Source: an uncultured delta proteobacterium (GTDB lineage: Bacteria; Desulfobacterota; BSN033; UBA1163). Taken from it: a stretch of DNA of 64,000 nt. The stretch is from assembly GCA_963806715.1 (NCBI GenBank), contig CAWEAV010000033.1, forward strand, positions 9,501 to 73,500, written 5' to 3'. The first letter of the stretch is position 1. Every line of letters begins with the position of its first letter. The position numbers and the translations under genes are program-made. This document shows positions 4,759-44,293 of the stretch, piece after piece. The notes beneath the pieces were generated by a model. The model searched no databases. It was given only the letters and a program-made list of their open reading frames with translations, and was not told the DNA's origin.

Positions 4759-4877
4759 ATAACAATTAGTCCTCCCCTTTAGTAAAGGGGAGTCAGAGGG
4801 GATTTGTCGAGATTTGTTGACTCAATTGGGGTATTAGTAAATGTCCGCTTTCTGCAATCTCATAAACATTTCTCGCT

Positions 4878-5554
4878 ATGGGCTTCGATGGAACCTCTAC
4901 GGTCAACGCGTTTCTCAGCTTATCAAACGACGTCAAGTTTTCCAAACTTTTCATCCTTTCCTTCTTATTATCAACAGCAGTCCAATCTAATAATCCTTGG
5001 AAGATCCGTAGTCTAATCGAGGCCGCATATTGTGGTTCACCTAACTTGGCAATCATTTCGCAATTGAAAGAGCTTGCAGGAGAGGCGAAATCCTCACAAT
5101 GGAATGGAAGGATGTGGACCTTTTCAAGAGAACAGTAACTGTCCTCGGAGAGAAAACCGAGGAACGGAGAGTCGTACCGCTGACGCAAAAGGCCTTCGAG
5201 GTTCTGAAAGCGCGAGAGCGGGCAAGGTCAAACGTGAGGCCATTGAAAGGAGACTTTGTCTTCACCCATCCAGCCGGAAGGAAGGCCAATATCCACACGC
5301 TGAGGACTGTGTTTGAGGCTGCGGTTGAAAGGACAAAGATAGAGGGCTTCCGCTTCCACGACCTGCGCCACACCTTTGCCTCAAGGCTCGCCCAGTCCGG
5401 AACAGACCCTTACACAATCCAGAGACTCATGGGGCACAAGTCTTTCGTGACGACGCAGAGATATGCCCACCATTACTCCGAAAGCCTGAGAAAAGGAATA
5501 GCGGCGCTGGATGAATTCAGGCAACAGAAATCCAATTTTATCACAATCGGGTGA
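4878..5554 (+). pseudogene. Tyrosine recombinase/phage integrase, N-terminally truncated and frame-broken near 5090
   Basis: 5099-5554 encodes the catalytic C-terminus (HDLRHTFASRLAQ, LMGHKS, TQRYAH = R..HxxR..Y). The upstream frame (4878-5098) carries the core-region motif LIEAA...LAIISQL...GEAKSS and joins by a 1-nt shift. No arm-binding/SAM-like N-terminal domain is present. The IS end lies about 120 bp upstream. Confidence 0.55.
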
Positions 5555-5605
5555 AAACCGAGGGTAGGATGGATTTGGAGAGTAGACGTAAGTTATTGAA
5601 AAAAT

Positions 5606-5675
5606 TGGTGCCGGAGGTCGGAATCGAACCGACACGGGGTGGAAGCCCCGCGGGATTTTGAGTCCGAAAACCGGC
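5606..5675 (-). other. tRNA-Leu(CAA)-like 3' fragment (anticodon arm to CCA), no 5' half; possible att-site remnant
   Basis: Reverse complement reads ...TCGGA CTCAAAA TCCCG CGGGG-CTTCCA-CCCCG T GTCGG TTCGATT CCGAC CTCCGGC A CCA. It has a perfect T-arm, a class-II variable arm, an anticodon loop CUCAAAA (CAA) and a CCA end. The 5' acceptor partner GCCGGAG and the D-arm are absent from the upstream sequence. Confidence 0.5.
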
Positions 5676-6039
5676 TTTTTGCTAACCCCCTGATTCTTAA
5701 GGCGGTCTCCCTTAACCACTTTAAAATACTGGGGAAAAACCTTTCAGGTCCATTCCATTCTACTCTGTCTATTCCATTCTATTCGGGTCGCTTTTATCAC
5801 AATTTTATCACATTAGCATTTCATGATTTGAATTGCCTACCTCTCATCGAATTCCTTATGTGCCTCAGGGGCAATGATTGCGGACGGCCTTCAAATAGAT
5901 AGTATTTTTCGAAGCCCAAAAAATTATGATTTGATGATCAAAGCTTCATCAGGCCCACCCCATTAATGGGAGAGGGTTTTAGCAAGCTATATTCAGTCTT
6001 TAGATGCTGATACCACCTCCTACAAGTGACAAGATGAGA

Positions 6040-6231
6040 CTAATCTTTGTCAATTCTCCTGGGCCGGATCATCTCTTCAGGCGATAGAATCTTCTCGATT
6101 TCTTCTTTCGAAAGAAACTTCTGATCGAGAACAAGGTCATAGACAGACTTTCCTGTTTGGAGGGCTTCTTTTGCAAGCATCGTAGAATTCCTAACCGAGA
6201 TATTCTTCAAGTTTCTTTCCTTTTGCCCCAT
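6040..6231 (-). pseudogene. Aspartate ammonia-lyase/fumarase-family C-terminal remnant (about 60 aa only)
   Basis: LAKEALQTGKSVYDLVLDQKFLSKEEIEKILSPEEMIRP matches the aspartase/class II fumarase C-terminus (AKEALETGKSV.ELVLE.GLLTEEELD.ILSPE.M..P). There is no room for the other 400 aa before the korG stop at 6307. Confidence 0.5.
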
Positions 6232-6306
6232 AGAACGGCTCTCTTATCCTTCGAAACTGCCTGATGATTGCCCTTGAGTAGTTTCTTGAAGGATTTCGGT
6301 TTCCTT

Positions 6307-6852
6307 CTATTCCTTCTTCGCCCGCTTGGCCGCGCTGATCCCTGCCTTGAGGGCTTCGCGGTTCAACCTCTCGGTGCCTTTGGGCACCCGTCCCAGGACC
6401 GCCGTCTCCATCGATTTGGAAGAAACGATCGGGGTCAACTGGGTCAAGGCTCCCAGGGCCACGATGTTGGCCACCATCTCCCTCTTTAATTTTTCCCGGG
6501 CAATGCGCGTAAAGGGGATCCGAAAGACCTTCGACGTGGGGACCTGCTTAACAAAGGTCGAATCGACGATGAGCAATCCACCCGGTTTGAGATCCGAATA
6601 GAATTCGTCGCACGATTTCTGATTCATGGCTAAAAGGAGGTCCAGCTTCATGGCCTTGGGATAGTCGATCTCCTCCTCACTGACGATCACCTCTGCCTTG
6701 CTCGATCCTCCTCTGGCCTCAGGACCATAGCTCTGAGTTTGGGCCACGTACTTCCCCTCATAGATCCCGATGGCTTCTGCCAAGATAATCCCCATGAGGA
6801 TGAGTCCCTGTCCGCCTGAACCACTGAGTCGAATCTCATACCGATCACCCAT
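6307..6852 (-). CDS. korC: 2-oxoacid:ferredoxin oxidoreductase gamma subunit
   Basis: 181 aa; GSGGQGLILMGIILAEAIGIYEGKYVAQTQSYGPEARGG is the POR/KOR gamma signature. Last gene of the 4-gene operon. Confidence 0.85.
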   Translation of the reverse strand: MGDRYEIRLSGSGGQGLILMGIILAEAIGIYEGKYVAQTQSYGPEARGGSSKAEVIVSEEEIDYPKAMKLDLLLAMNQKSCDEFYSDLKPGGLLIVDSTFVKQVPTSKVFRIPFTRIAREKLKREMVANIVALGALTQLTPIVSSKSMETAVLGRVPKGTERLNREALKAGISAAKRAKKE

Positions 6853-6854
6853 CG

Positions 6855-7691
6855 CTATTTCCCTGCACCTCCCTTTGCCCGTTCTCGAATCTTTTCGTAT
6901 TCAATTTGAAATACGGGAAGTTCTTTATCGACCAAGACCCCGATAAGAAGCTGATCCTTCGTCTCCTCGGGCTTCATCGTCACCGCCTTCTCCACGGTCA
7001 ACGCATGATCCCGCTGCCACTCCATCATCTCCACTGCCCCTCCGAGATGGTTCTGCCTTCCATACTGAGTATGGCAATGGGCAATGACTTCGACTACGGA
7101 AAACCCCTGTTTTAGAAAGGCCTTTTCCATCAGGCTGTCCAGGAGCTTCGCATGATAGACCGTCCCTCTTCCGACAAAGACGGCTCCGGCCGTCACCGCC
7201 AACTCCGAAATCCTAAAGGCCTGCTCAATATTCGAATAGATCGTTGTGGTGGACCGCATCCCGTAAGGCGTTGTCGGTGAGTACTGGCCTCCGGTCATCC
7301 CATAGATGCTGTTATTGAGGATGATCGCCGTGACATCAATGTTCCTTCGGGCCGCGTGGATGAAGTGGTTGCCTCCTATGGCAACGGCATCTCCATCCCC
7401 CATGATGACGATCACCTTGAGATTGGGTTTGGCCAGTTTCACCCCTGTGGCAAAAGTCAGTGCCCGTCCGTGGGTCGTATGGAGGGTATTGAAATCGACA
7501 TAAACCGGGAGCCTTCCCGAACACCCAATCCCCGAGACAAGGACGACGTCATCCTTTGCGTAGCCGATTCGATCGATCGCCCGGATGAGAGCGCCCAACA
7601 TGATCCCGATCCCGCATCCGGGACACCAGACATGGGGAAACTTCTTGTCGTGGCGAAGGTATTTATGAATCAGCTTGGTAATTTCAGGCAT
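6855..7691 (-). CDS. korB: 2-oxoacid:ferredoxin oxidoreductase beta subunit (TPP-binding)
   Basis: 278 aa; CPGCGIG...GIGCSGR...IMGDGDAVAIGGNHFIHAARRNIDVTAII TPP motif. Confidence 0.9.
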   Translation of the reverse strand: MPEITKLIHKYLRHDKKFPHVWCPGCGIGIMLGALIRAIDRIGYAKDDVVLVSGIGCSGRLPVYVDFNTLHTTHGRALTFATGVKLAKPNLKVIVIMGDGDAVAIGGNHFIHAARRNIDVTAIILNNSIYGMTGGQYSPTTPYGMRSTTTIYSNIEQAFRISELAVTAGAVFVGRGTVYHAKLLDSLMEKAFLKQGFSVVEVIAHCHTQYGRQNHLGGAVEMMEWQRDHALTVEKAVTMKPEETKDQLLIGVLVDKELPVFQIEYEKIRERAKGGAGK

Positions 7692-28506: not shown

Positions 28507-30355
28507 TTATTTCGATGCTTTCGTGGGGTGGAAAAAATCATAGACCCTTCGGGCGGTTTTTAAGTCCATCTTAGGAACCTTCGTCAATTCTTCAACGGTG
28601 ACTTCTTTAATCTTTCCAACACTGCCAAAATGTTTCAACAACTCCCTCTCCCGTGTTTCTCCGACACCACGGATATCTCCTAATTCTGATTTGACCGTTT
28701 CTCTTCCTCTTAATTTCTTATGATAGGTAATGGCAAAGCGGTGGGCTTCATCACGGATCTGATCGAGAAAACGGAGAAGGGCTGAATGTCTTTCCAGCCC
28801 AAGGGGCTCCTTGTATTGAGGATGAAATATTTTTTCCTCGGTTTTCCGAAACCTCGATGAATGAAGACCTCCGATCGTCTTCTCCTTGGCCAGGCTGACA
28901 AGATCGACGTCCTTAATCTGGAGCTCTTTAAACACCTCCTGAGCCACATTCAGTTGGCCCTTTCCACCATCTAATAAGACCAGGTCGGGGAGATCCTTCT
29001 CTTCAAGGGCCTTTTTATATCGACGGAGGAGGACTTCATACATCATGCCATAGTCGTCTGCTCCCTCAATCGTTTTGATCTTGAAGTGACGGTACCGCTC
29101 TTTGGCGGCTTTCCCGTTTTCAAAGACCACCATCGAGCCTACCGCATTTTTTCCCTGGATATTTGAGATATCGAAGGCCTCAATCCTTCGGGGATTTTTT
29201 CTAAGGTGAAGGCTCTCCTGCAGCGCTTCAAGGAGCTTCTCCTGATCCTTTTCAATCTCCGTCTCAGCTAAGAGAAACTTTTCCGCATTTTCGCAGGCCA
29301 TCTTCAGGAGTTGCTTCTTATCCCCTCTCACAGGAACAAGGATTTGAACCTTCTCTCCCTTGAGTTCCGTCAACCATTGCTCGACAAGGGGATTGGTCGG
29401 GAATGGCTTCAGGTATCAGGATCTTCTTGGGAATAAACTTTCCTTCGCGGTAATACTGCTTGAGAAAGGAAGAAAGAATCTCTTCGTCGGGAAGGCCCGC
29501 AGATGGGAAGGTAAAACCTCTGCCTCCCAAAAGTTTCCCTGCCCTGACAAAGAGGGGATAGATGATGAGGGTGTGATTCTGACGACGAAACCCGAGGACA
29601 TCCTGATCCACAAAATCACTCGATACGATTTTCTGCTTTTCAATGACATGTTCAATATGTCTGATCTGATCCCGCATTTTAGCCGCTGCTTCAAAGTGGA
29701 GTTGCACCGATTCCTCTTCCATTCTCTTCTTCAGCCTCCCGACAAGATCTCTGTCCTTTCCTTCTAAAAACATCCTCACCTGTTGAACGATCTCGTGGTA
29801 TTGTGCCGGGTTAATCTTTCCACAACATGGACCCGAACATCGGTCCATTTCGTAATTGATGCAGGGCCTTAACCGATGGGTAAATTTTGTGTCGAGGCAA
29901 GTCCGTATGGGAAAGAGCCTTCGAATCAGTTTTAAAGTCTCTCTAAGGGAAGTAGCTGAAGGGTAAGGGCCGAAATAGACAGAACCATCTTTTTTTGCCC
30001 GCCGGACAATGCATAAAGTGGGAAACTCCTCTGCCATAGAGAGCTTCAGAAGAGGGTAGGTCTTGTCATCCCTCAGTTTCACATTATAACGGGGCCGGTA
30101 TTCTTTAATAAGATTATTCTCGAGGATAAGGGCCTCTTTTTCGGTATCGGTGACAATCGTATCAATGTCCACCACTTTGTCCACCATGGTGAGGATCTTC
30201 GCATCTTTTCCCTCTGGCTTCTGGAAATAGGAACCCACCCGGTGCTTGAGGTTCCCTGCTTTGCCAACGTAAAGGATGGTTCCCTTTTCGTCCTTAAAAA
30301 GATAAACGCCTGGATTATTCGCTATATTTTCGATTTTTTCTTTCACGTATTCCAT
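28507..30355 (-). CDS. uvrC: Excinuclease ABC subunit C (frame break at a C4/G4 homopolymer near 29386-29390)
   Basis: The N-terminal ORF (GIY-YIG, UvrBC) and C-terminal ORF (endonuclease V-like, HhH) are contiguous if one C is removed from ...GACCAATCCCCTTGTCGAG..., giving ...IPDQSLVEQWLTELKGEKV. Confidence 0.85.
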
Positions 30356-30620
30356 TCTTTACACGGTGCCCCTCTGAAGAACTTAATTTTAAGGGTATAC
30401 GATGCTCTGAGCTTTTGCAACCCAAGAATGGGTTCTGTTGGTCTACAATCCAGACACTGGACTTCAGTCCCACCAAGGCGGGATTAGACACCAGACTTTA
30501 GACTCCAGACTGTCTGATGTTCATGGTCTGATGTCTGAATCACCTTTGCTCTCGCCATTACCCCTCTTCAGTCTCATGTCTGAGGTCTAAAGTCTTACTG
30601 TCTGAATCATAGGGTCTTGA

Positions 30621-31323: not shown

Positions 31324-31665
31324 TCATCTTTCCATTTTCTCGAAAACCGAAAGCGTTCCTATTCTCTCTATAGTAACAACTCTTTCTTCCTGTACTAAAT
31401 AATTTACAGGTTCGGCAAATAGGTGTATATTCGAACCAGTAATCTTGAAGGCTGCGTGATCTCCGAGCGCGAAACAGGAAGGAGCCAAGTGATACTCGAA
31501 CCAGTGATCGATAGGTGCCACATTTGTGGGAGAATGACTAAGCTCAGTTTTGAACATGTTCCACCACGCAGCGCCTTCAATAACACCGGGGTGCTCATCG
31601 CGGACATGAATTTCGAACAGCCGCTCACCGTCAAGGGCGTGCCGCAAGGCGCGAGGATATTTCAA
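31324..31665 (-). CDS. Hypothetical protein
   Basis: 113 aa ORF, no family recognised; overlaps the promoter-like repeat L1. Confidence 0.25.
   Translation of the reverse strand: MKYPRALRHALDGERLFEIHVRDEHPGVIEGAAWWNMFKTELSHSPTNVAPIDHWFEYHLAPSCFALGDHAAFKITGSNIHLFAEPVNYLVQEERVVTIERIGTLSVFEKMER
31397..31468 (+). promoter_or_regulatory. Promoter-like repeat L1 (TTTACA-N17-GGTGTATATT plus conserved downstream box)
   Basis: AAATAATTTACAGGTTCGGCAAATAGGTGTATATTCGAACCAGTAATCTTGAAGGCTGCGTGATCTCCGAGC. About 85% identical to 33262-33332. Confidence 0.5.
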
Positions 31666-32283
31666 TTAGGGATGGGTTCGTATAGCCTATGCCCCAAATG
31701 CAATAGCGACACGGGTACGTAGTACGGCGAAAGGTTCGTTCAATTCTGCAAGAAAGGAATGCTCATACTGAAGGAGACCAACTACAGACCCAGTCTTTGC
31801 TACTTTGGAGATATTTATCCTTTGGCAGTCATTAAACAGATTCTCTCTATGTTTCTCACCATCAACTCCCTTGCCTTTAGAGATAAATACACCGATCTTG
31901 TTCCTTTTATTCTTGACAAACAGGCACACCATCTTCACCCAAGATATCGTATTTAAATCTACTTCAACCACGGTGGCATGCACCGCGCAACTCCAGTCTC
32001 CGCAAAACTTGACCTAAAAACTTCGACTATGGAACCCCTCAGAACAAGCCTAATGACGGAAATCTCTTACCCGCCATTTGGCTACTTGATGACCATCGAT
32101 TCTGAGCCACCGGACCCAGAAGTAGTCGATATTACATTTTTTTCCGAATGTGCCTACAACCAGTTGAGGACCATTTCGATGGATTACCCGGTATATCCTA
32201 CACATACTTTCTTTCCCGCAGACTATCGTAATATTGAAAAGATAATCAAGGACAGGCGAGAAAAAGGAGGACTTGTCCCATAG
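31488..32283 (+). pseudogene. HNH endonuclease (HNH_5-like), one 265-codon frame interrupted by in-frame TAG (31720-31722) and TAA (31954-31956)
   Basis: N-terminal CHICGR...EHVPPRS...CPKCNSD (CxxC...H...CxxC HNH/zinc motif). ORFs 31423-31722, 31759-31956 and 31978-32283 are all in the same frame. Confidence 0.5.
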
Positions 32284-32925: not shown

Positions 32926-33258
32926 ATGGTGCTGACCCCAATGAAAACACAAGACACGATTGCTTCTTGGCTACTTGTCCTATTTGTCTTGGGATCTTTT
33001 GTAAGGGCATTTTATGAACTAACCGATGCTCTGCAGTTAAACCGTCCTATCAGCACAATTCTTTGGTACATGGGGGTTACGTTGGTCGTGGGTGCCTCTG
33101 GCCTATTCCTAGTTTTTCGTTTTTTTCACATTATGCACGAATTGGGGCATTATGAGGTTGAACGAGAGACAAAGAGAAAAAGAACAATCGAAAGGATAGA
33201 AGGTTATAAAAAAAGGCAACATTCCTTTTTAGAGGACCGTCTATTGCTTACTTTCTGA
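32926..33258 (+). CDS. Small 2-TM membrane protein
   Basis: 110 aa; two hydrophobic helices (IASWLLVLFVLGSFV; ILWYMGVTLVVGASGLFLVF) and a basic coiled C-terminus. Confidence 0.4.
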   Translation: MVLTPMKTQDTIASWLLVLFVLGSFVRAFYELTDALQLNRPISTILWYMGVTLVVGASGLFLVFRFFHIMHELGHYEVERETKRKRTIERIEGYKKRQHSFLEDRLLLTF

Positions 33259-33261
33259 ACA

Positions 33262-33332
33262 AAATAATTTACAGATTTGGTAAAAGGTGTATATTTTAAA
33301 AAGTAATCCTGAAGGTTGCGTGATCTCCCAGC
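33262..33332 (+). promoter_or_regulatory. Promoter-like repeat L2 (TTTACA-N16-GGTGTATATT plus conserved downstream box)
   Basis: AAATAATTTACAGATTTGGTAAAAGGTGTATATTTTAAAAAGTAATCCTGAAGGTTGCGTGATCTCCCAGC; direct repeat of L1. Confidence 0.5.
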
Positions 33333-33378
33333 AACGGCTTTAACGTCTATGCTGATTTTAAGTGTAAGGGAGGCATCT

Positions 33379-33750
33379 ATGAATCAGGTAGAACTTAAAG
33401 ATTTCATAAAAACCACTCTCATCGAGATTGCCAAAGGGATTAAAGGCGCGAATGAGGAACTTAAGAACACAGTCTTTAGCTTGAGACACAACAAGGGGGA
33501 TCTTTCGAAAATTCCTGGCATACAATTCGATATTACAGTCACTGCCACCAAGAATCAAAAGGACAAAGCTGGGTTTATGGTCGCACTGGTAAACATTGGT
33601 GGAGGTGCAAACACGAAAAAAGGGATAAGTGACAAGATGGTGCACAGGATAAAATTCGAAATCGGCATTGATCAGGGGTCACTAACCAACTTGAGCGACG
33701 ATGAGCTTGACGAGAGGATCAATGCGTTGTTGGAGGCAAAAGGCAAGTGA
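33379..33750 (+). CDS. Hypothetical protein, 123 aa
   Basis: Start MNQVELKDF with a GGGAGG RBS; no family recognised. Followed by the TGACAATGTTTGTCA palindrome and a T-run. Confidence 0.4.
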   Translation: MNQVELKDFIKTTLIEIAKGIKGANEELKNTVFSLRHNKGDLSKIPGIQFDITVTATKNQKDKAGFMVALVNIGGGANTKKGISDKMVHRIKFEIGIDQGSLTNLSDDELDERINALLEAKGK

Positions 33751-34267: not shown

Positions 34268-34711
34268 ATGAATGAAACGATGGGATATTCAACCAGTCTC
34301 GGTTACCTTTTTGTCAGCCTTCTTGTTCTCTCTCTGGCCGTCAAGTGGTATGAAAACTACTGCAGCGTCCTTACGGTTATGGAGAAACCACCCCTCCTGG
34401 CAAACACGGCAGGCAACCTATCCGTATGGATCATTCGCAGTCTTATGATGTATGGGAGTTTTGTTGGAATTTAGTTTGTGTGGGGCGTATGGGCAGTGCT
34501 TCCGGCGTACGCCTTGAAGATGATCTTCAGCCGAGGAACACTCAAATACTACTACTTCAAAGCAGTCCGAAAGTGGGCCTTTTATTACTTGGACAAACTT
34601 ACGAACGAAGCGAAGGGCAACAGACAGACTCTTGACGAGGATCAGTTAAAAGCACAGGCCCTCCTTCTTGCGAAAAGTATGGTGCAGAAGGCAATGAGGA
34701 ACGAATGGTAG
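34268..34711 (+). pseudogene. Small membrane protein, single frame interrupted by an in-frame TAG (34472-34474)
   Basis: ORFs 34268-34474 and 34478-34711 are in the same frame, separated by one TAG. Hydrophobic helices lie on both sides. Confidence 0.3.
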
Positions 34712-35670
34712 CCCTAGCATGCCCCCTGTGTAACCACGATAACGCGGATAGGGAGGACCTGATCGAGCGCGGGACCCGCCTGTATAGGTGTCCCCGGTGC
34801 AAAACCTTCGAGATTAACAACTCGCTTTGCCATTGTATGGAACTTGGTGAGTATGCCGAAGGTGGACACATCCTCTCGGGGCTATCGAGACGAGCGTGGG
34901 AGCATGAGGAACAGCGCATGCAAAGGGAAAGAACTACTTTCTTCACGCCATACCGCATAGATGAGAACACCATTCAAGACCAACTTGCCTCGCTGGTTCT
35001 CTCGCGGAGCCCTCTGGACCGAATGAATATTTTGCTGCTATTGGTCCAAGAGCGAACCGTTGATTTCCGGGAGGGCGCATGCTTTGATTTCGAGATGGAT
35101 TATCCTTTGCTCTTCGCCCGAGATGGCGATGAAAGCTTCTACTTCGCGCAAATAGCAGAACAAATGAGCTTTCTTGAAGGCTTTGGAAACGGTCACGTCA
35201 CGCGTAGTTCGACTCGACTCCGCCTAACTGCACCAGGATGGGAACGTGTGGACGTATTGTGCCGCTCGGTAGTGCAATCGAGCAAGGTCTTCGTTGCAAT
35301 GTGGTTCGACAACACCATGACGCCAATCTGGGAGCACGGTTTCAAGCCGGAGTTAACATCTCTCGGATACGATCCCATCCGCATTGACTTCCAGGAGCAT
35401 ATCGACAGAACAGACGACCGAATACTCGCCGAGATTAGGACAAGTGGTTTCGTTGTTGCCGATTTCACGGGTGCACGTTCTGGCGTATATTTCGAAGCAG
35501 GTTTTGCGATGGGCTTGGGCAAACCAGTTGTCTGGACATGCCGACGTGACTGGATCGACAAACTTTACTTCGATACGCGGCAGTTCAATCACATCCTCTG
35601 GGATAATCCCGAAGACCTTCGGGAGAAGCTTCGTAATCGCATCAACGGCGTAATCCGCCCTCTATTGTAG
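34705..35670 (+). CDS. Zinc-ribbon protein with C-terminal nucleoside 2-deoxyribosyltransferase/TIR-like Rossmannoid domain
   Basis: N-terminal CPLCN...CPRCK ribbon. C-terminal VFVAMWFDNTM...FVVADFTGARSGVYFEAGFAMGLGKPVVW matches the NDT-like pattern (DxxGTxFE.G.A.A.GKPV) with the conserved Glu. Confidence 0.5.
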   Translation: MVALACPLCNHDNADREDLIERGTRLYRCPRCKTFEINNSLCHCMELGEYAEGGHILSGLSRRAWEHEEQRMQRERTTFFTPYRIDENTIQDQLASLVLSRSPLDRMNILLLLVQERTVDFREGACFDFEMDYPLLFARDGDESFYFAQIAEQMSFLEGFGNGHVTRSSTRLRLTAPGWERVDVLCRSVVQSSKVFVAMWFDNTMTPIWEHGFKPELTSLGYDPIRIDFQEHIDRTDDRILAEIRTSGFVVADFTGARSGVYFEAGFAMGLGKPVVWTCRRDWIDKLYFDTRQFNHILWDNPEDLREKLRNRINGVIRPLL

Positions 35671-35853
35671 TTGACTCCGGTGTCGCGAGGTCCATCGCAT
35701 AAATGGGTCTGTCGCCTTCTACGTAAAAAGGCGACATTTTCGTTTTAACCTCCTTAGAAAGTCCTTTATTTTCCTCACTTGTGGATAAAAACTTTGCGTC
35801 ATCCTGTCGCTTTTTTGTATAATAAGCGACAGGACTCTGGCTAAGGGATAAGG

Positions 35854-36482: not shown

Positions 36483-36893
36483 ATGCCCTACCAATACAAA
36501 CGAGAACCATTAAGCGACGACGAAGTAAACCGGCTCACCAATGCCTGTGAGACCTTTGATGAAAAGCTCATCATTTGGACTCTCCTGGACACGGGCTTGA
36601 GGGTGGGCGAGCTGGCTCATCTAAAAAAAGACAACATCCTTTGGCAGGAGCGCCGGATCCTGCCCATGACCGATCGAATCCGGAGGTTGATTGACCACCA
36701 TTTTGCCGAGCACGACAGTGCCGGCATGAGCAGCCGCACCATTCAAAGAATCGTAAAAGAAGTGGCCAACAAAGCCGGGATCTCCACCCGGGCCCTCATG
36801 GCCCTCCTTGGCCATGATCGCCTGGCCACAACCGAGATCTATTTGAACCTCTCTCCGGAAGATGCGATCAGGGAGTTTCAGAATAAGTGGTAA
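36483..36893 (+). CDS. Short tyrosine-recombinase catalytic-domain-like protein (possible integrase remnant)
   Basis: 136 aa; TGLRVGELAHL (box I Arg) and LLGHDRLATTEIYLNL (HxxR...Y). No N-terminal core-binding domain. Confidence 0.45.
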   Translation: MPYQYKREPLSDDEVNRLTNACETFDEKLIIWTLLDTGLRVGELAHLKKDNILWQERRILPMTDRIRRLIDHHFAEHDSAGMSSRTIQRIVKEVANKAGISTRALMALLGHDRLATTEIYLNLSPEDAIREFQNKW

Positions 36894-37042
36894 GGCCCAC
36901 TGTTTGTTTCTTCCTGAAACTTTGGCTTCCCAATTCTTCAAAAGAGGTGTATATTATAACCCGTATTTTGCAATTGATAACGCTGACCCAAGGCCGCATA
37001 TTTTCCTTTAATAATTATATGCATGCAACATAACATTAATTA

Positions 37043-37792
37043 TTGTTCGACCAAAACCAAGGAAATTCTATGGTTCGCTATCCGCATCATGGGAGGTGCC
37101 GAATGGCAAAGCTTTCTATCTCATTATTCGCATTTCTTTTGTTTACTTTTTCCAGCGTATGTCTGGCTGAGGAGTTGATATTTCCTTTTACGGTAGATCA
37201 AAACACAAAGAATGAAGATATAAACCAGCTCCCAGTGCACAAAGACATACAGACCGACAAATGGTTCATGAGTCCGCCGACTCGCCTTGAGTTATTGACT
37301 TACGCAATTGATCAATATTTTCAAAAGAAGGTTGCAGATCTCTGGCACATGATAACAATCGAGGAATATTTTGAACAGCAATCCCCTTACAGTTCTGTTC
37401 GAGCAGAAGCAGACGTGGATTTTTACAGTGCCAAAGATGTGTTTGTTGCTAAGGTTAGAGTAACAGGCCTTGGCAAACCTAAGAAACCTATGAAAGAGGT
37501 CTGCTCTGAGGTTTTGAATTTAATGGATTCTTCTTTGAAGGGTGGTGGTTATCTTTATCAGAATACATTTCTCAGGGCCTTCATCCAAGGAGACCCGCGC
37601 GACCCAGAAGTTGTCCGCATTGCCGAGAAATTGCGGAAGAAGTTTTTGGTTGTGGTCATTCTCGAAGCGAAATTTGACAAAGAGAAACATGCAGATGCGA
37701 TACCACGAGACTTCTACACGATGCAGTGTTATAAGTCGCCTGAAGAAAAGGAGGTTCACTATTCAAAGCGAACATTTAGGCTGGAGCGGTAA
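37043..37792 (+). CDS. Secreted hypothetical protein (signal peptide; start probably 37103)
   Basis: MAKLSISLFAFLLFTFSSVCLA signal peptide. A GGTGTATATT motif lies about 100 nt upstream. Confidence 0.4.
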   Translation: MFDQNQGNSMVRYPHHGRCRMAKLSISLFAFLLFTFSSVCLAEELIFPFTVDQNTKNEDINQLPVHKDIQTDKWFMSPPTRLELLTYAIDQYFQKKVADLWHMITIEEYFEQQSPYSSVRAEADVDFYSAKDVFVAKVRVTGLGKPKKPMKEVCSEVLNLMDSSLKGGGYLYQNTFLRAFIQGDPRDPEVVRIAEKLRKKFLVVVILEAKFDKEKHADAIPRDFYTMQCYKSPEEKEVHYSKRTFRLER

Positions 37793-39030: not shown

Positions 39031-42000
39031 CTATTTTTCTTTGGGGGGAGTGGAAAGCATTTCAATCAGGTCCTCCCGGGAGAAGGTTTTCAATAAACCC
39101 GGATCATCTTCTATTACGATGCTGTCCATCAGGTTACGTTTTTTCTCAATAATCGCAGCAATCTTCTCCTCCAGTGTCCCTTCGGTCACCAGCTTGAAGA
39201 CCTGAACCCCTCGCCTCTGCCCGATCCGGTGAACCCGGTCGGTGGCCTGGTCCTCCTTTGCCGCATTCCACCAGCGATCGTAATGAATAACAACCGACGC
39301 CGCCACGAGGTCAATGCCTGCGCCTCCTGCCTTCAGGCTTCCCACATAAACCCGACAATCCGGATCTTCGTTAAATCGATTAACAATCTCCCCCCGCTTC
39401 AGACTTTGACCGGTGAGGGTAACGAAACCTACACCCATCCCTTGCAGGCAATGCTCTATGATCCTTATCATTCCTAAAAATTGGCTATAAACCACAACCT
39501 TCTGTCCACTGTCCAGGCTCTCCGAAAGGAGTTCTTTGAAAAGCTCCCATTTGCCGGATTCGTATCGCTCAAAATCTTCTACTTTCCGCTCAATCAGGGC
39601 CGGATGGTTGCAGATCTGTTTAAGCAAACTGAGCAAAGCAAAGATGTGCATATATGGGATCGGTTCCTCACTTCTCTTCAGAACATCGACCAGTCCTTTA
39701 CCTCTTGAAGAGATGGCATCCCTATAAAGCTTAATTTGATCGTCACTGAGGCTACATGTCCTTATGTCCTCAATCTTCTTGGGAAGCTCCTCAAGGACCG
39801 TTTTCTTGAGACGGCGCAGCGTGAAAGGCGATATCAGTCTGCCCAGGACCTGCCGTTTTTCACTCGAAAGTTCCATTTCAATGGATTTGACATATCTTGA
39901 ATTGAAATCCTCGTCAGTTCCCAGGTAACCAGGAACGGTCAGGTCGAAAAGGGCTTTCAGCTCGATCAGGCTGTTTTCGATGGGGGTTCCTGTAAGGCCA
40001 AGTTTCATGGATGCCCTGAGAGATCTGGCTGCTTCATAAGCAAGAGTCTGGGGGTTCTTGATGTTCTGTATTTCATCAAACACGACAAGGGAAAAAGGGA
40101 TGCGTCTTAACTCCTCAATATCATTCCGGAGGATACCATAAGAGGTAAGAATCACATGGTTACCCTCAAGTGCATCCTGGAGGTTGCGTTCTCCTCCATG
40201 AAAAACTGCTGTTTTCAAGACTGGAGCGTGGACAGATATTTTCTGGTACCAGTGGCTCAGGACCGTTGTGGGACAGACAACCAGAAATGGCCCCTTTACG
40301 TCTTTATGTTCCAATAAAGACACTATGAACGCCATTACTTCATGGGTTTTTCCCATTCCCATGTCATCGCACAGGAGACCTCCGAGGCCGTTTTCGAAAA
40401 GGAAGAGGAGCCATTCCACCCCTATTTTCTGGTAAGCCCTCAAGGTTGAAGCTAATCCTTTAAGTTCCTGCAAGGGTTGTGCAGGCCTCAGTTCAAGCAC
40501 TCTATTTAAGAGGAGGGCCGTATCCCCATCACCTGTCACCTCAATGGGGCGAGAAGTAGAAGCCTTGAGGCGAAGCAGGTCCATCCTGGAAAACCTCACC
40601 CGGTTTGCACGATCAACCCTTTGCTCCGTTGTAATTTGATTCAGAATGGGATCCAATCCTTCAAACTCCTCGGATTGGCAGTCTACCCATCCATCGCTGG
40701 TGGGGATAAAATGCTGGCCTTCTTTCTTTGCCCGAAGGATTTCCGCAAGAGAAATAGTCGAATTGCCAAAACCATACTCGAACGAAAGCCAACACCAATC
40801 CCGGTCGATGGTCTCAGGAGTTACCTTAATTTCATCAAATCGGGTGTAGATCTTGAGCCGTTTCACCGAGGCATCGATGATGTGGGAGCCGCCTTGAAGT
40901 TCATCCCCAAATTCTTGCAGGAAACTGGGGACCTGGGATTTCTTGAGCACCATCTTAATGGGTGCTGCAAACCTGCGTTGCAGATTTCCTTGGGGCTCCA
41001 ATTCAGCCAGTAGACTCAACTCCTTGATATAGACCAAATCGCCGTACCGGAAACGTTCCAGATCTTCTCTTTCAAAGAACCTTGCTTCACCATCCTCCTG
41101 GAGGATCTGAATGATAGGCCGGACCTCCAGATCCAGTTCTGTTGTTGCTGAAATTTTGAAGATCGATTTAAGAGGAACAGGGTGGATCATCAGGCCGTGC
41201 TGGTTTGGGATGAACTCACTGAAAGCAGCGAGTAATTTTTTCACTTTCTCCCGTGGAACGACAATTCGAAAAACGGGGTCGCTTCCAGAATGTCTGCAGG
41301 CAATTGTAAAAGCGCCGGAATTCTCTTCAATAGCCGGATGAAATGCAATTTCTTCTTCTCCGAATTCACGAAAGCAGTGATAGGCAATTCGGTACCAAAC
41401 ACTTTCTTCCAAGACCCATCGAAGGGTTTTATAACCACATTCCCCCATGACCCTTTCCTCATCCGATCGTGTCATGCGGCCAAGTTCGTCCAAGAGGGCG
41501 CCTCTGTGGGGTACGGTATTCTCCTTTGGAACCTGACCCAGTCGCTCCAGAAGACGTGATTCATCAGGGGTTTTTGAAAGATAGGAGAGAATCTCCTGAC
41601 CATCGGAACCGACTACCCTGAGAGTGGAACCACCTTCCGAATCAACAAACTGGAGACGGACTGACTTCAAGGTCTCCTGGCATTTGTCAGCAAGGATGGT
41701 TGCCAAACGATACCAGAGACTTGACCGGAAGGCCTCATTTGGGGGTTTTCCTTTATATTTTTTCTGGAGAGCTTTGTAAGATTCAACCAGCTTCAGAATG
41801 TGTGGGCAGGTTTGCTTTTTAGCGATTAAACAGGAACAGATTCTTATGTCGGGATCTCTTGAACTGCCTTTTAGAAAATAGGCAACGCCAGGCCTTCTAT
41901 CGGATAGATCGGGTACAAAGGCCAATCCATGGCGATGGAATTCAATCCGGTGAAGGTCGGCCTCGGAAGAATTCGATTCCCCGTTCTCGGGCTCTTTTTT

Positions 42001-42045
42001 TGAATGGCGATTGACAGGGGAGGAAGTTCTGCGGGAATGGGACAC
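39031..42045 (-). CDS. SNF2-family helicase with N-terminal SWIM zinc finger
   Basis: 1004 aa; SWIM CSCLIAKKQTCPH; SNF2 motifs LCDDMGMGKT, VVFDEIQNIKN, LTGTPIEN; helicase C (VVVYSQF...DRVHRIGQ). Confidence 0.85.
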   Translation of the reverse strand: MSHSRRTSSPVNRHSKKEPENGESNSSEADLHRIEFHRHGLAFVPDLSDRRPGVAYFLKGSSRDPDIRICSCLIAKKQTCPHILKLVESYKALQKKYKGKPPNEAFRSSLWYRLATILADKCQETLKSVRLQFVDSEGGSTLRVVGSDGQEILSYLSKTPDESRLLERLGQVPKENTVPHRGALLDELGRMTRSDEERVMGECGYKTLRWVLEESVWYRIAYHCFREFGEEEIAFHPAIEENSGAFTIACRHSGSDPVFRIVVPREKVKKLLAAFSEFIPNQHGLMIHPVPLKSIFKISATTELDLEVRPIIQILQEDGEARFFEREDLERFRYGDLVYIKELSLLAELEPQGNLQRRFAAPIKMVLKKSQVPSFLQEFGDELQGGSHIIDASVKRLKIYTRFDEIKVTPETIDRDWCWLSFEYGFGNSTISLAEILRAKKEGQHFIPTSDGWVDCQSEEFEGLDPILNQITTEQRVDRANRVRFSRMDLLRLKASTSRPIEVTGDGDTALLLNRVLELRPAQPLQELKGLASTLRAYQKIGVEWLLFLFENGLGGLLCDDMGMGKTHEVMAFIVSLLEHKDVKGPFLVVCPTTVLSHWYQKISVHAPVLKTAVFHGGERNLQDALEGNHVILTSYGILRNDIEELRRIPFSLVVFDEIQNIKNPQTLAYEAARSLRASMKLGLTGTPIENSLIELKALFDLTVPGYLGTDEDFNSRYVKSIEMELSSEKRQVLGRLISPFTLRRLKKTVLEELPKKIEDIRTCSLSDDQIKLYRDAISSRGKGLVDVLKRSEEPIPYMHIFALLSLLKQICNHPALIERKVEDFERYESGKWELFKELLSESLDSGQKVVVYSQFLGMIRIIEHCLQGMGVGFVTLTGQSLKRGEIVNRFNEDPDCRVYVGSLKAGGAGIDLVAASVVIHYDRWWNAAKEDQATDRVHRIGQRRGVQVFKLVTEGTLEEKIAAIIEKKRNLMDSIVIEDDPGLLKTFSREDLIEMLSTPPKEK

Positions 42046-42298: not shown

Positions 42299-44293
42299 TT
42301 ACCCCATTTTTAATTCCAGTTCTTCAAGACGATGTATCCGATCCCTTAGTTCTGCGGCCCGCTCGAATTCCAACTGACTCGCCGCTTCCTTCATCTCCTT
42401 TTTTAACTTCTGGATGAGATTGGGAACCTCTTTGACAGACCCATACTCTTCCTTCACATCGGAGACGGTTGGAATAGTGAAGTAATCTGATTCATAGATT
42501 GAAGCCAGGATATTCCGGATCGATTTCTTGATGGTCTGTGGGGTAATTTGGTGAACCTGGTTATACTCTTCTTGAATTTTTCTCCTCCGGTTTGTCTCAA
42601 GAATGGCCTGACCCATGGACCCGGTCATTTTATCCGCATAGAGGATCACCTTCCCGTTTACGTTTCGCGCAGCCCGGCCAAAGGTCTGGATTAAGGACTT
42701 TTCTGATCTCAGGAAGCCTTCCTTGTCCGCATCCAGGATGGCCACAAGGGAAACCTCTGGAAGGTCGAGACCTTCCCGCAAAAGATTGATGCCGATGAGA
42801 ACGTCAAATTTTCCGAGTCGAAGCTCTCTGATAATTTCGATCCGGTCGAGCGTATCGATATCCGAGTGGAGATATTTCACCTGAATTCCAAGGTCAGCAT
42901 AATATTCGGTCAGGTCCTCGGCCATCCGCTTGGTGAGGGTTGTGACAAGGACTCGCTCCTTCTTCTTCACTCGCTTGCGTATCTCTTCCAGAAGATCATC
43001 GACCTGGTTTTTGGCAGGCTTTACTTCAAGGGAAGGATCAATCAACCCAGTAGGCCGGATGATTTGTTCCACCACCCTCCCCTGACATTTCTTCATCTCA
43101 TACTCGCTGGGAGTGGCCGACACATAGATGACCTGGCGGACCCTTTCATGAAACTCTTCGAACTTGAGTGGCCTGTTGTCCAGTGCCGAAGGGAGGCGAA
43201 ATCCATATTCCACCAGGGTCTCTTTTCGCGACCGGTCTCCCCGGTACATCCCGATTAATTGAGGAAGGGTCACATGGCTTTCATCGATGAAGAGAAGGTA
43301 GTCTCTGGGAAAATAATCAAGTAAAGTAGGAGGAGGTTCTCCGGGTCTCCTTCCGGTGAGATGGCGGGAGTAGTTTTCGATCCCCTGGCAGTAACCGAGT
43401 TCCTTAAGCATCTCCAAGTCAAATCTTGTCCGCTGCTCCAGTCGCTGGGCTTCGAGGAGTTGCTTCCGCGATTTGAACCATTCGAGCCTCTCCTTCAGTT
43501 CCTCCTGGATTGTTTGGATAGAGATCCTCATCCGGTCCGGAAAAGTGACATAGTGACTGCCAGGGTAGATAGGGAGCTTGTCAAGGGCCTGGATGATCTT
43601 TCCTCTTAAAGGATCGATTTCTGATAGGGCCTCCACCTCATCCCCGAAGAGTTCAATGCGAATGGCCTGTTTTTCTTCGTGGGCTGGAAAGACATCGATG
43701 ACGTCCCCTCGAACCCGGAAGGTCCCCCGGTGAAAGTCGATATCATTTCGCTCATATTGGATCTCCACCAGTTTGGAGAGGATCTGCTCCCGGGAGATCT
43801 CCATCCCTTTTTCCAGGTAGAGAAGCATCCCATGATAAGCCTCCGGTGAACCCAGGCCATAGATACAGGACACACTGGCAACGATGATGACATCGTTTCT
43901 CTCCAGAAGGGAACGGGTGGCAGAGTGCCGCATCTTATCGATGTCCTCATTGATCAGCGTGTCCTTCTCAATGTAGGTATCCGTGGATGGAATATAGGCC
44001 TCGGGCTGATAATAATCATAATAGCTGACAAAGTATTCAACAGCGTTCTCTGGAAAGAGTTCTTTAAATTCACCATAGAGCTGGGCGGCGAGGGTCTTAT
44101 TATGGGAAAAGACCAGGGTAGTTTTTTGAACCCTCTCGATTACATTCGCCATCGTAAAGGTCTTTCCAGAGCCTGTCACACCCAGAAGGACCTGATGAGA
44201 AACCCCTTTTAGAACGGCTTCGGTCAACTTCTCAATGGCCTGGGGCTGATCACCTTTTGGCTGGAAATCGGAGACGAGTTTGAATTGGGTCAT
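42299..44293 (-). CDS. uvrB: Excinuclease ABC subunit B
   Basis: 664 aa; [29 protein letters not shown]-terminal UVR domain. Confidence 0.95.

Follow-up and report, generated by a model that had tools for sequence, protein, structure and literature searches.

A candidate single-protein sensor-effector with an NDT/TIR-like catalytic domain and a portable zinc-ribbon head in an uncultured delta proteobacterium

Background

That a domain resembling nucleoside 2-deoxyribosyltransferase (NDT) can be a killing enzyme is shown by retron Ec86 (Retron-Eco1), whose NDT-like effector has a catalytic Glu, depletes NAD+ or adenine nucleotides and needs dimerization (10.1101/2023.08.16.553469; PMC13276650). 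A second described system, Swarozyc, is a single-protein, TIR-like NADase of the DUF4062 family in which an auxiliary domain senses the phage portal (10.64898/2026.05.01.722283). Here we describe a gene that is comparable to both, located at positions 34705-35670 of the plus strand of a 64,000-nucleotide stretch of DNA from an uncultured delta proteobacterium (GenBank assembly GCA_963806715.1, contig CAWEAV010000033.1, positions 9,501 to 73,500). This whole stretch is called the window below, and coordinates are counted from its first nucleotide. An earlier note, made from the sequence alone, had described the product as a zinc-ribbon protein with an NDT/TIR-like, effector-type domain in a toxin-antitoxin-rich island.

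We find that the N-terminal head of this protein also occurs on proteins in which the tail has been swapped for immune NAD-destroying domains, and that anti-phage genes are frequent neighbors of its homologs. The gene is therefore most likely a one-gene defense against viruses. In the form that we favor, and hold to be somewhat better than an even bet, it encodes a stand-alone sensor-effector, complete in a single protein, that cleaves NAD+ or nucleotides.

Results and discussion

An NDT/TIR-like tail with an invariant glutamate

The gene is complete and has exactly the extent given in the earlier note. It starts with ATG, preceded at a distance of 5 nucleotides by the Shine-Dalgarno core GAGG (read from the sequence), and encodes 321 amino acids arranged as a zinc ribbon, a helical linker, a winged-helix-like domain and an NDT/TIR-like domain. 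Forty nucleotides past the stop codon, the sequence also reads as a terminator-like hairpin on the plus strand (35710-35746), TGTCGCC-N13-GGCGACA followed by the T-run TTTTCGTTTT; the scan tool did not report it because its loop is longer than 8 nucleotides. An AlphaFold2 model of the full 321-amino acid protein, built with an alignment of 103 sequences, has a pLDDT of 90.8 and a pTM of 0.75. All conservation figures given below refer to this alignment, which includes the window protein.

The tail (residues 189-321; 35269-35667, plus strand) is identified by profile and Foldseek comparisons as an NDT/DNPH1/MilB-like, TIR-related Rossmannoid domain and putative N-glycosidase effector, and appears in the AlphaFold2 model as a five-stranded alpha/beta domain spanning residues 191-320. 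Pfam family PF05014 matches the window protein at E = 3e-5 (24.6 bits, under the gathering score of 28.8 bits) over residues 236-279 only, and a precomputed match to this family exists for a sizeable minority of the best 120 of the 4678 homologous clusters described below. The top Foldseek matches in PDB, with a probability of 1.0 and TM-scores on the target of 0.5-0.77, are NDT (8qc0), BcmB (4jen), DNPH1 (8qhr), MilB (4jel) and 4p5d; TIR domains (SPARTA TIR-APAZ 8oz6, SARM1 8gni and RPPT-TIR) are also among the fold matches, ranked below the NDT family. When the fold was searched against BFVD, phage NDT-like and CMP-hydrolase-like proteins led, with E-values down to 9.5e-6, and a phmmer search of PDB returned only Rcl/DNPH1 and MilB, at E of about 1 and exactly over ADFTGARSGVYFEAGFAMGLGKPV. 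A profile of the family finds nothing significant among all PDB chains, indicating that no close relative has been solved. At E ≤ 1, the window protein has no Pfam match to TIR, TIR_2, the TIR-like PF10137 or DUF4062 (PF13271). Taken together, the profile, structure-prediction and fold-search results bear out the earlier assignment of the tail to the NDT/TIR-like Rossmannoid class, and none of the profile or structure searches places it in an unrelated family.

The conserved Glu that had been part of this assignment can be located precisely. Glu264 (codon GAA, 35494-35496, plus strand) is the predicted catalytic nucleophile and is invariant in 103 of 103 sequences, within a motif that reads ADFTGxRxGVYFEAGFA in the family; residues 262-275 of the window protein are YFEAGFAMGLGKPV. 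In the phmmer alignment, the Glu of GVYFEAGFA falls on the Glu of GVGYELGRA in Rcl/DNPH1, which by our numbering would be the catalytic Glu93, equivalent to Glu98 of the Lactobacillus leichmannii NDT. The same alignment places R258 opposite Ser87, a phosphate-binding residue of Rcl. Also invariant are D253, T255, G266, A268, F289 and T291, while R226, D228, D238, R258, D290, R292, Q293 and H296 are nearly so. A further motif, LHFDTRQ in the family, aligns with LYFDTRQ in the window protein (35563-35583, plus strand), where Tyr288 is encoded by TAC at 35566-35568.

The first strand of the domain bears on the substrate. It has the consensus (A/V)FVAMWF, with AFVAMWF in the window protein; F196 is present in 102 of the 103 sequences and replaced by Tyr in one, and positions 195 (Ala/Val) and 199 (Met) were read from the alignment. 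The strand-1 Tyr typical of NDT and DNPH1 is thus essentially absent from the family, the equivalence of residues being that of a sequence alignment only. Tyr7 of NDT and Tyr13/24 of DNPH1 are hydrogen-bonded to the catalytic Glu and tied to 2'-deoxy specificity, and TIR NADases, which act on 2'-OH substrates, have Phe or Ala at that place (PMC11204291). By the strand-1 criterion the family thus resembles the NADase configuration, though its ExGxA motif is NDT-like.

That the closest solved folds are DNPH1, MilB, BcmB and NDT suits a different explanation, in which the protein is a housekeeping nucleotide N-glycosidase of the DNPH1/MilB kind that salvages or sanitizes (modified) pyrimidine or purine nucleotides, with the head serving for regulation or dimerization. 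The strong conservation of the catalytic domain also speaks for such an enzyme, but the Tyr that marks the deoxynucleotide-specific NDT and DNPH1 enzymes (PMC11204291) is the very residue that the family lacks. We return to this explanation, which we consider unlikely, where the genomic contexts are weighed.

Homology of the tail to a CBASS effector

Among the PADLOC models, the window protein matches one, PDLC00733 (annotated 'Effector' and 'TIR'; E = 1.5e-11), and the alignment covers positions 259-365 of a model that is 388 positions long. All of 32 diverse family members match the same model, the best at E = 5.6e-14. Positions 1-258 of the model, the cyclic-nucleotide receptor region, give no alignment with the window protein.

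A 388-amino acid protein encoded on plasmid p53363 of Bradyrhizobium guangxiense (locus L096) is 33% identical to the tail over 128 amino acids (E = 7e-14), and the two share the pattern AD(F/I)TGxRS...FxExG(F/Y)AxGxGxP...FD. In the L096 operon (2763-6935 of that locus), the gene for this protein comes directly after that of a Trip13/Pch2 ATPase (E = 5.7e-50 to PDB 6p8v) and is followed by a 3'-5' exonuclease gene. Ahead of the ATPase gene, the operon contains a frameshifted open reading frame (ORF; 2763-3822) that is CD-NTase-like by eye, and a small ORF sits in the HORMA position. Judged by gene order and sequence, this appears to be a type III operon of the cyclic-oligonucleotide-based anti-phage signaling system (CBASS), with the 388-amino acid protein in the effector position. 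Homology to this protein makes the tail a bona fide effector-type module. As a separate observation, the class of CBASS effector represented in L096 appears to be uncharacterized.

A zinc-ribbon head shared with TIR and cyclase proteins

The head consists of three segments encoded on the plus strand. The first is a Cys4 zinc ribbon (residues 1-46; 34705-34842), which the earlier note had recognized from its CxxC...CxxC pattern. The AlphaFold2 model agrees, showing a three-stranded beta ribbon at residues ~3-38, and so does the conservation of the four cysteines: C6 and C32 are invariant, and C9 and C29 are present in 101 and 102 of the 103 sequences, respectively. A helical linker follows (residues 47-100; 34843-35004), with a modeled helix at 54-75 and, in the alignment, an invariant R62 within LSGxxR. 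The third segment is a winged-helix-like domain (residues 101-188; 35005-35268), modeled with helices at 103-117, 133-136 and 141-153, strands at 157-159 and 171-174, and a connecting helix at 176-188; G178-W179 in its wing are conserved. Modeled alone, the head reaches a pLDDT of 94.2. Across phyla, the head segments vary more than the tail (mean pairwise identities of 26-33% and 64%, respectively), and a variable head on a conserved tail would be the pattern expected of a diversifying sensor joined to a conserved effector.

Fold searches found no significant solved structural relative of the head. The best match is the ELOF1 ribbon (E = 0.2), and matches of the winged helix to MarR, ScoC, E2F and ORC are weak (E = 0.3-3). 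No Pfam family spans the head either; a few members have weak zinc-ribbon matches, and 1 of 31 has a weak match to HTH_27. The Pfam TackOD1 and Lar matches found in a few members were set aside, as they cover the zinc ribbon only.

The winged-helix-like fold, its weak MarR, ScoC and E2F matches and the single HTH_27 match would be in keeping with a ligand-sensing transcription factor that contacts DNA through the ribbon and winged helix and uses the NDT-like domain as a catalytically silent, nucleotide-binding sensor, as domains of the SLOG/LOG type can be. However, none of the fold matches reaches significance (E ≥ 0.2), and the head is net acidic (a family mean of -2 for the winged-helix segment, -4 in the window protein), which argues against generic DNA binding. 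A silent sensor is also at odds with the invariance of the Glu and the catalytic-type motif around it, no divergent target gene is conserved, and the replacement of the tail by TIR or cyclase domains in other proteins, described next, does not fit the design of a repressor. We therefore regard a transcription factor as quite improbable. A DNA-binding regulator more generally, or a DNA glycosylase, was likewise weakened as a candidate by the acidic head and the non-significant winged-helix matches.

We searched 1.84 billion representative proteins (50% identity clusters) with a profile built on residues 1-188. It has 4563 matches at E ≤ 1e-3, of which 2093 reach E ≤ 1e-10. We examined the tails of 145 of the 150 best head matches (all with E ≤ 5e-30) using a local hidden Markov model of the tail. 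An NDT-like tail is present in 113 of them; of the others, 21 are truncated and 11 end in a tail of another kind. Five of these 11 carry a canonical TIR domain, the clearest being P0162 (E = 4e-15 to the AbTIR/Tir group, 6e-14 to the CRISPR-associated Cat1), with weaker matches for P0149 and P0164 in which all or nearly all matched chains are TIR. The tail of P0217 is TIR-like of the Cap12/PycTIR type (E = 6.7e-6 to Cap12 and 6e-4 to PycTIR), two proteins end in a class III nucleotide cyclase (P0155, E = 3.5e-28 against 3mr7; P0147, by cyclase-type motifs), and three have helical tails of no known kind. In addition, a divergent sub-family (P0140, P0143, P0188, P0189 and P0192) combines the same head with a tail reading AFMAMPF...ADLT...G(A/V)YWEAG(F/Y)AEGLG...HFDTNHHTT, which appears to be a second NDT-like tail type.

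From these comparisons the head appears to be a portable module, which is the key new result of this study. Its presence on TIR and Cap12/PycTIR tails implies that these and the NDT-like tail are functionally interchangeable. By analogy, a variable N-terminus with interchangeable NADase and cyclase outputs, and no partner genes, would be the design of a single-protein immune sensor.

The head itself also varies. In a second variant, CPIWGTPA...SPRAGGRY(F/C)I, with one Cys, takes the place of the CxxC...CxxC ribbon, while the winged helix and tail are kept and the tail reads ADFTHGxxGARGGVYYEAGFAHGL. This variant was found in loci L027, L041, L050, L061, L066-L076 and L080, mainly from Pseudomonadota and Thermodesulfobacteriota, among other lineages.

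Because class III cyclases and TIR domains are both known signal producers, the alternative tails raise the possibility that the protein is a signal generator, in which a cue sensed by the head prompts the tail to produce a nucleotide-derived messenger, through base exchange or cyclization as in ThsB TIRs and cyclases, for an effector encoded elsewhere. NDT enzymes are, moreover, transferases by mechanism. Yet no receptor or effector gene is conserved beside the gene in the 79 loci compared below, whereas in the known signaling defense systems the effector gene, to our knowledge, belongs to the same operon. The closest relative of the tail in a defense system is itself in the effector position of a CBASS operon. 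We consider a signal generator rather improbable.

A widespread gene that travels alone

A homology search with the window protein found 4678 homologous 90% clusters at E ≤ 1e-3. The best 120 of these are mostly 300-320 amino acids long and mostly of the full-length architecture, covering 57-100% of the window protein (most ≥ 88%); they include one identical match, on a 93-kb contig, and a clade of matches that are 73-87% identical. Where homologs have been given a name, it is 'hypothetical protein' or 'nucleoside 2-deoxyribosyltransferase'. A pattern scan in which each species was represented by a single genome gave at least 581 loci. The distribution is patchy across many phyla, including Chloroflexota, Acidobacteriota, Planctomycetota, Bacteroidota, Ignavibacteria, Nitrospirota, Thermodesulfobacteriota, Pseudomonadota and Bacillota, together with one Bathyarchaeia genome.

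To compare neighbors, ORFs were called in 80 retained loci, the target gene was identified in 79 of them, and the five genes on either side were compared all against all. No neighbor is conserved; the most widespread family, a transposase, occurs in 5 of the 79 loci. Each of the 79 has a single copy of the gene. In tblastx comparisons of the window with three loci of the 74%-identical homolog P0006 and with the locus of the 46%-identical P0012, only 34715-35670 matches. Since similarity ends at the borders of the gene and no neighbor is conserved, the gene travels alone, and on this comparative evidence it appears to be a stand-alone, horizontally moving gene. For the same lack of conserved neighbors, we reject membership in a CBASS, a retron or a toxin-antitoxin pair. 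The window island itself contains no CD-NTase operon, with or without HORMA/Trip13 or Cap2/Cap3, and near the gene there is neither an ORF of the size of a reverse transcriptase nor a Pfam match to one.

The absence of conserved neighbors also bears on whether the protein is the toxin of a toxin-antitoxin or addiction module, with a neighboring small ORF or an unrecognized RNA as antitoxin. The island in the window is rich in toxin-antitoxin pairs, an upstream ORF overlaps the start codon of the gene, and NDT-like toxins do exist in tripartite, toxin-antitoxin-like retron systems (PMC7736814; 10.1101/2023.08.16.553469). Nevertheless, nothing beside the gene is conserved in the 79 loci, homology stops at its borders, and the overlapping ORF is itself broken by a stop codon. 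Rfam yields no family above its gathering score between 30 and 39 kb of the window, a lone SNORD97 match being at chance level (E = 0.65); nor is a reverse transcriptase found nearby. A toxin of this kind is therefore very improbable.

Mobile elements carry several copies. Plasmid-borne homologs occur on Bacillus mycoides megaplasmids and Bradyrhizobium conjugative plasmids, and a copy on a Leptospira phage-plasmid adjoins a SEFIR protein gene. Distant relatives are found in temperate phages of Streptococcus, in the early region a few kilobases from the attachment-site end. The family matches PHROG 16139 (E = 3.6e-44), and 47 IMG/VR contigs carry the gene, with integrases (6), type I restriction-modification subunits, terminase and portal proteins within three genes on either side.

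Defense islands and other contexts

We annotated 12 loci with Pfam, comprising the window and 11 homologs, 9 of which were picked for their long contigs and 2 (P0005 and P0006) as the closest relatives. Seven of the 12, the window among them, are defense or mobile islands, 2 are ambiguous and 3 are housekeeping. Homologs are therefore not confined to housekeeping contexts; such confinement is what the earlier note had named as counting against its reading. Homologs 74% identical to the window protein adjoin, in one context, BREX (bacteriophage exclusion) genes with MqsRA, a PIN protein and an integrase and, in another, AbiEi/AbiEii, a 939-amino acid SIR2 protein and a Gp49/helix-turn-helix pair. 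Elsewhere the gene is found with a transposase, a PIN toxin-antitoxin pair and DUF6119; with SocA/Panacea and DUF5131; and with SIR2, AbiJ, Ymh and DUF3800. In Pyrinomonadaceae (L087/L088, 5287-10418), it lies 27 nucleotides downstream of the gene for an 895-amino acid protein with weak guanylate-cyclase and HEAT matches, and its immediate downstream neighbor, in convergent orientation, encodes a 459-amino acid DUF4062 (Swarozyc-type) protein. Both ambiguous contexts adjoin a 1330-amino acid AAA_11/AAA_12 helicase.

Among 127 immediate neighbors, the commonest families are type I S subunits, N6 methylases, HerA, AAA_13/21, Schlafen-AlbA2, SRAP and integrase, with many metabolic genes mixed in. 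Defense families look enriched relative to what we would expect beside a random gene.

A proposed abortive-infection mechanism and the case against it

The effector-type reading put forward in the earlier note has been strengthened by the homology of the tail to a CBASS effector, by the occurrence of the same head on TIR, Cap12/PycTIR-type TIR and cyclase tails, and by the adjacency of the closest homologs to BREX, AbiE and SIR2 genes. If the protein is a sensor-effector, the ribbon, linker and winged helix would form a sensing or regulatory module that keeps the enzyme silent until a cue of infection arrives. Given the acidic head, bulk DNA is a less likely cue than a protein or small ligand. 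On receiving it, the tail would dimerize or oligomerize, which is probably needed for activity as in NDT, DNPH1 and TIR enzymes, and Glu264 would attack C1' of a phosphorylated ribosyl compound and break its N-glycosidic bond. The most likely substrate is NAD+, with nucleoside monophosphates as an alternative. Depletion of an essential metabolite would then leave the infected cell arrested or dead, that is, abortive infection.

A bolder and more tentative proposal, to which we give somewhat less than an even chance, is that the head defines a large, hitherto undescribed family of one-gene immune sensors, comprising ~4500 representative clusters at 50% identity and having at least four outputs: NDT-like, canonical TIR, Cap12/PycTIR-type TIR and class III nucleotide cyclase. 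The dominant, NDT-like output would be a new stand-alone class of abortive-infection N-glycosidase, shared with the type III CBASS effector, that destroys NAD+ when the head recognizes a phage protein. More speculatively, by analogy with the solved relatives DNPH1 and MilB, the target could be phage-type (hydroxymethyl-)pyrimidine nucleotides, which are the substrates of those enzymes.

Several observations weigh against a defense function. Three of the 12 annotated contexts are purely housekeeping, and most of the 127 immediate neighbors are not defense genes: restriction-modification, HerA, AAA_13/21, Schlafen and integrase proteins make up ~10-13% of them (counted over the top 25 families). 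In two related Dehalococcoidia (L009 and L085, with the gene at ~10001 and ~8001, respectively), the homolog is located inside a pyrimidine operon, pyrR-pyrB-nudix-pyrC-[gene]-carA-...-carB; the L085 copy overlaps the start of carA by 8 nucleotides, and the flanking proteins of the two loci are 66-83% identical. A tail identity of 64% across phyla is unusually slow evolution for an immune effector. On viral contigs the gene shows a mild end bias (15 of the 47 copies lie no farther than 10% from an end, versus 9.4 expected), too weak and unconvincing to be taken as a preference for prophage ends. The role in defense is inferred, as are the trigger, the substrate and a requirement for oligomerization, and the sensor role assigned to a head that has no significant structural relative is an argument from the logic of the architecture. 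Finally, the window copy, with a substitution at residue 288 and decayed surroundings, may be attenuated, or these features may be assembly errors.

Some of these points favor the housekeeping N-glycosidase introduced above: the insertion between pyrC and carA, the pyrimidine genes within 10 kb in three further loci, the other housekeeping contexts and the constant single copy in the 79 loci. But synteny is not kept beyond close relatives, and the spread is patchy and includes plasmids and prophages. Such an enzyme would also leave unexplained why its head is found on TIR, Cap12-TIR and cyclase tails, why its tail is homologous to a CBASS effector and why its closest homologs reside in BREX, AbiE and SIR2 islands. 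As for a specific link to pyrimidine biosynthesis, 4 independent events against ~1.6 expected (a rough estimate) are not clearly above chance, and we did not retain it.

The surroundings of the window copy

In the window, uvrC and uvrB enclose a mosaic island, decayed in parts, to which the gene belongs. G+C content is 51% over 34500-35499, a span that takes in most of the gene, compared with 41-46% in the flanking DNA. The copy is also distinguished by Tyr288: 101 of the 102 other sequences, including the closest homolog, the 87%-identical P0002, have His at this position, and the H288Y change is unique to the window copy.

The toxin-antitoxin content of the island is partly as the earlier note had it. 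A vapBC pair is present and the AbrB/MazE antitoxin is well supported (E = 2.7e-11), while its proposed RelE-like toxin partner falls below the cutoff (E = 1.3e-3). The 'small membrane ORFs' listed beside the gene turned out to be one frame rather than two. This membrane-protein frame (34268-34711, plus strand, 147 codons) has an in-frame TAG at 34472-34474 and extends 7 nucleotides into the start of the gene; by tblastx, the closest homologous loci have nothing similar to it in the region preceding the gene. More generally, none of the neighbors that had been listed (a two-transmembrane-helix protein, a 123-amino acid ORF, the small ORFs and the relE-abrB pair) is conserved with the gene elsewhere, and they are therefore not its partners.

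The reported promoter duplication does exist, with 31382-31475 and 33247-33340 ~83% identical and containing TTTACA-N16-TATATT. The repeated unit, a promoter with a conserved leader element of ~95 nucleotides, lies upstream of an HNH-like frame and of the 123/144-amino acid ORF. A third, partial promoter copy (36941-36965, with the core AGGTGTATATT) lies upstream of a 249-amino acid ORF at 37043. The repetition suggests a promoter or operator shared within, and specific to, the island. The HNH-like frame (31423-32283, plus strand) has a weak HNH_5 match (E = 0.007) and in-frame stops, TAG at 31720-31722 and TAA at 31954-31956, and is probably a pseudogene. The other downstream frame is a 144-amino acid ORF (33316-33750, plus strand; 123 amino acids from an internal ATG) with a weak match to Trypco2, below the cutoff (E = 0.0057); Trypco2 is a domain described in vWA-MoxR conflict systems. 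Just upstream of it lies the two-transmembrane-helix protein (32926-33258, 110 amino acids), which belongs to no family.

At the borders, uvrC is read on the minus strand as two overlapping ORFs (28507-30355), with GIY-YIG and UVR domains in 29318-30355 and RNase H and HhH domains in 28507-29373, which is either a frameshift or an assembly error. The uvrB gene (42299-44293) lies 12 kb away with the island in between, and a 1004-amino acid SNF2 helicase (39031-42045) also falls between the two. An inverted repeat (30493-30595; 18-nucleotide arms, 89% complementary, 67-nucleotide spacer) separates the start of uvrC from vapB. A 136-amino acid tyrosine-recombinase fragment (36483-36893, plus strand), which matches Phage_integrase in two short stretches (E = 1e-12), is an integrase remnant adjoining the RelE-like/AbrB pair. 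The repeat search found only the promoter duplication, and no att-like direct repeats bounding the island.

Comparison with known systems

We found no description of the head, the architecture or the stand-alone family in PADLOC v2, Pfam, NCBIfam, PDB or the searchable literature, and no solved structure or assigned substrate, in searchable sources, for the NDT-like 'TIR' class of CBASS effectors. If the proposed function is correct, the gene would add a very widespread single-gene defense family, present in many environmental phyla and on plasmids and prophages, and with it a new portable sensor module. It would also give a function to that NDT-like class of CBASS effectors, and the interchange of NDT-like, TIR and cyclase tails on one head would amount to a natural experiment on the exchange of immune outputs.

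With the NDT/DNPH1/MilB-BcmB family of CMP N-glycosidases (PF05014, clan Nribosyltransf), the tail shares a Rossmann-like fold and the motif xDxTxxxxGxxxExGxA, including the aligned Glu, which predicts the same chemistry, cleavage of an N-glycosidic bond by way of a Glu nucleophile. What sets the window family apart is the invariant HFDTRQ(Y/F)NH motif, R258 and the 188-amino acid zinc-ribbon/winged-helix head. The CBASS effector of L096 has an N-terminal region of its own of ~250 amino acids, unrelated to the head described here and presumably a cyclic-nucleotide receptor, and its gene lies with a CD-NTase-like ORF and Trip13, whereas the window gene has neither a CD-NTase nor any conserved neighbor. 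Similarly, the retron Ec86 effector, like the window tail, is an NDT-like domain with a Glu, but it is held in check by an adjacent reverse transcriptase and multicopy single-stranded DNA, partners that the window gene lacks; when all PDB chains were searched with the family profile, the solved Ec86 effector was not among the matches at E ≤ 10.

Bacterial TIR and Cap12/PycTIR effectors have a related fold, and sister proteins with such tails carry the same head, although in both its fold and its ExGxA motif the window tail resembles NDT and DNPH1 more than TIR. The enzyme class and the logic of a sensor joined to an effector are already known, and one described system with such a design is Swarozyc. 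Both it and the window family combine, in one polypeptide, an enzyme domain of the TIR/NDT superfamily bearing a Glu with an auxiliary domain, for which we propose a sensing role in the window family. Swarozyc is also patchily distributed, horizontally transferred and associated with defense islands (10.64898/2026.05.01.722283), as is the window family. The two differ in that the window family has no DUF4062, its enzyme domain is C-terminal and NDT-like, and its auxiliary domain, a ribbon with a winged helix, is unrelated.

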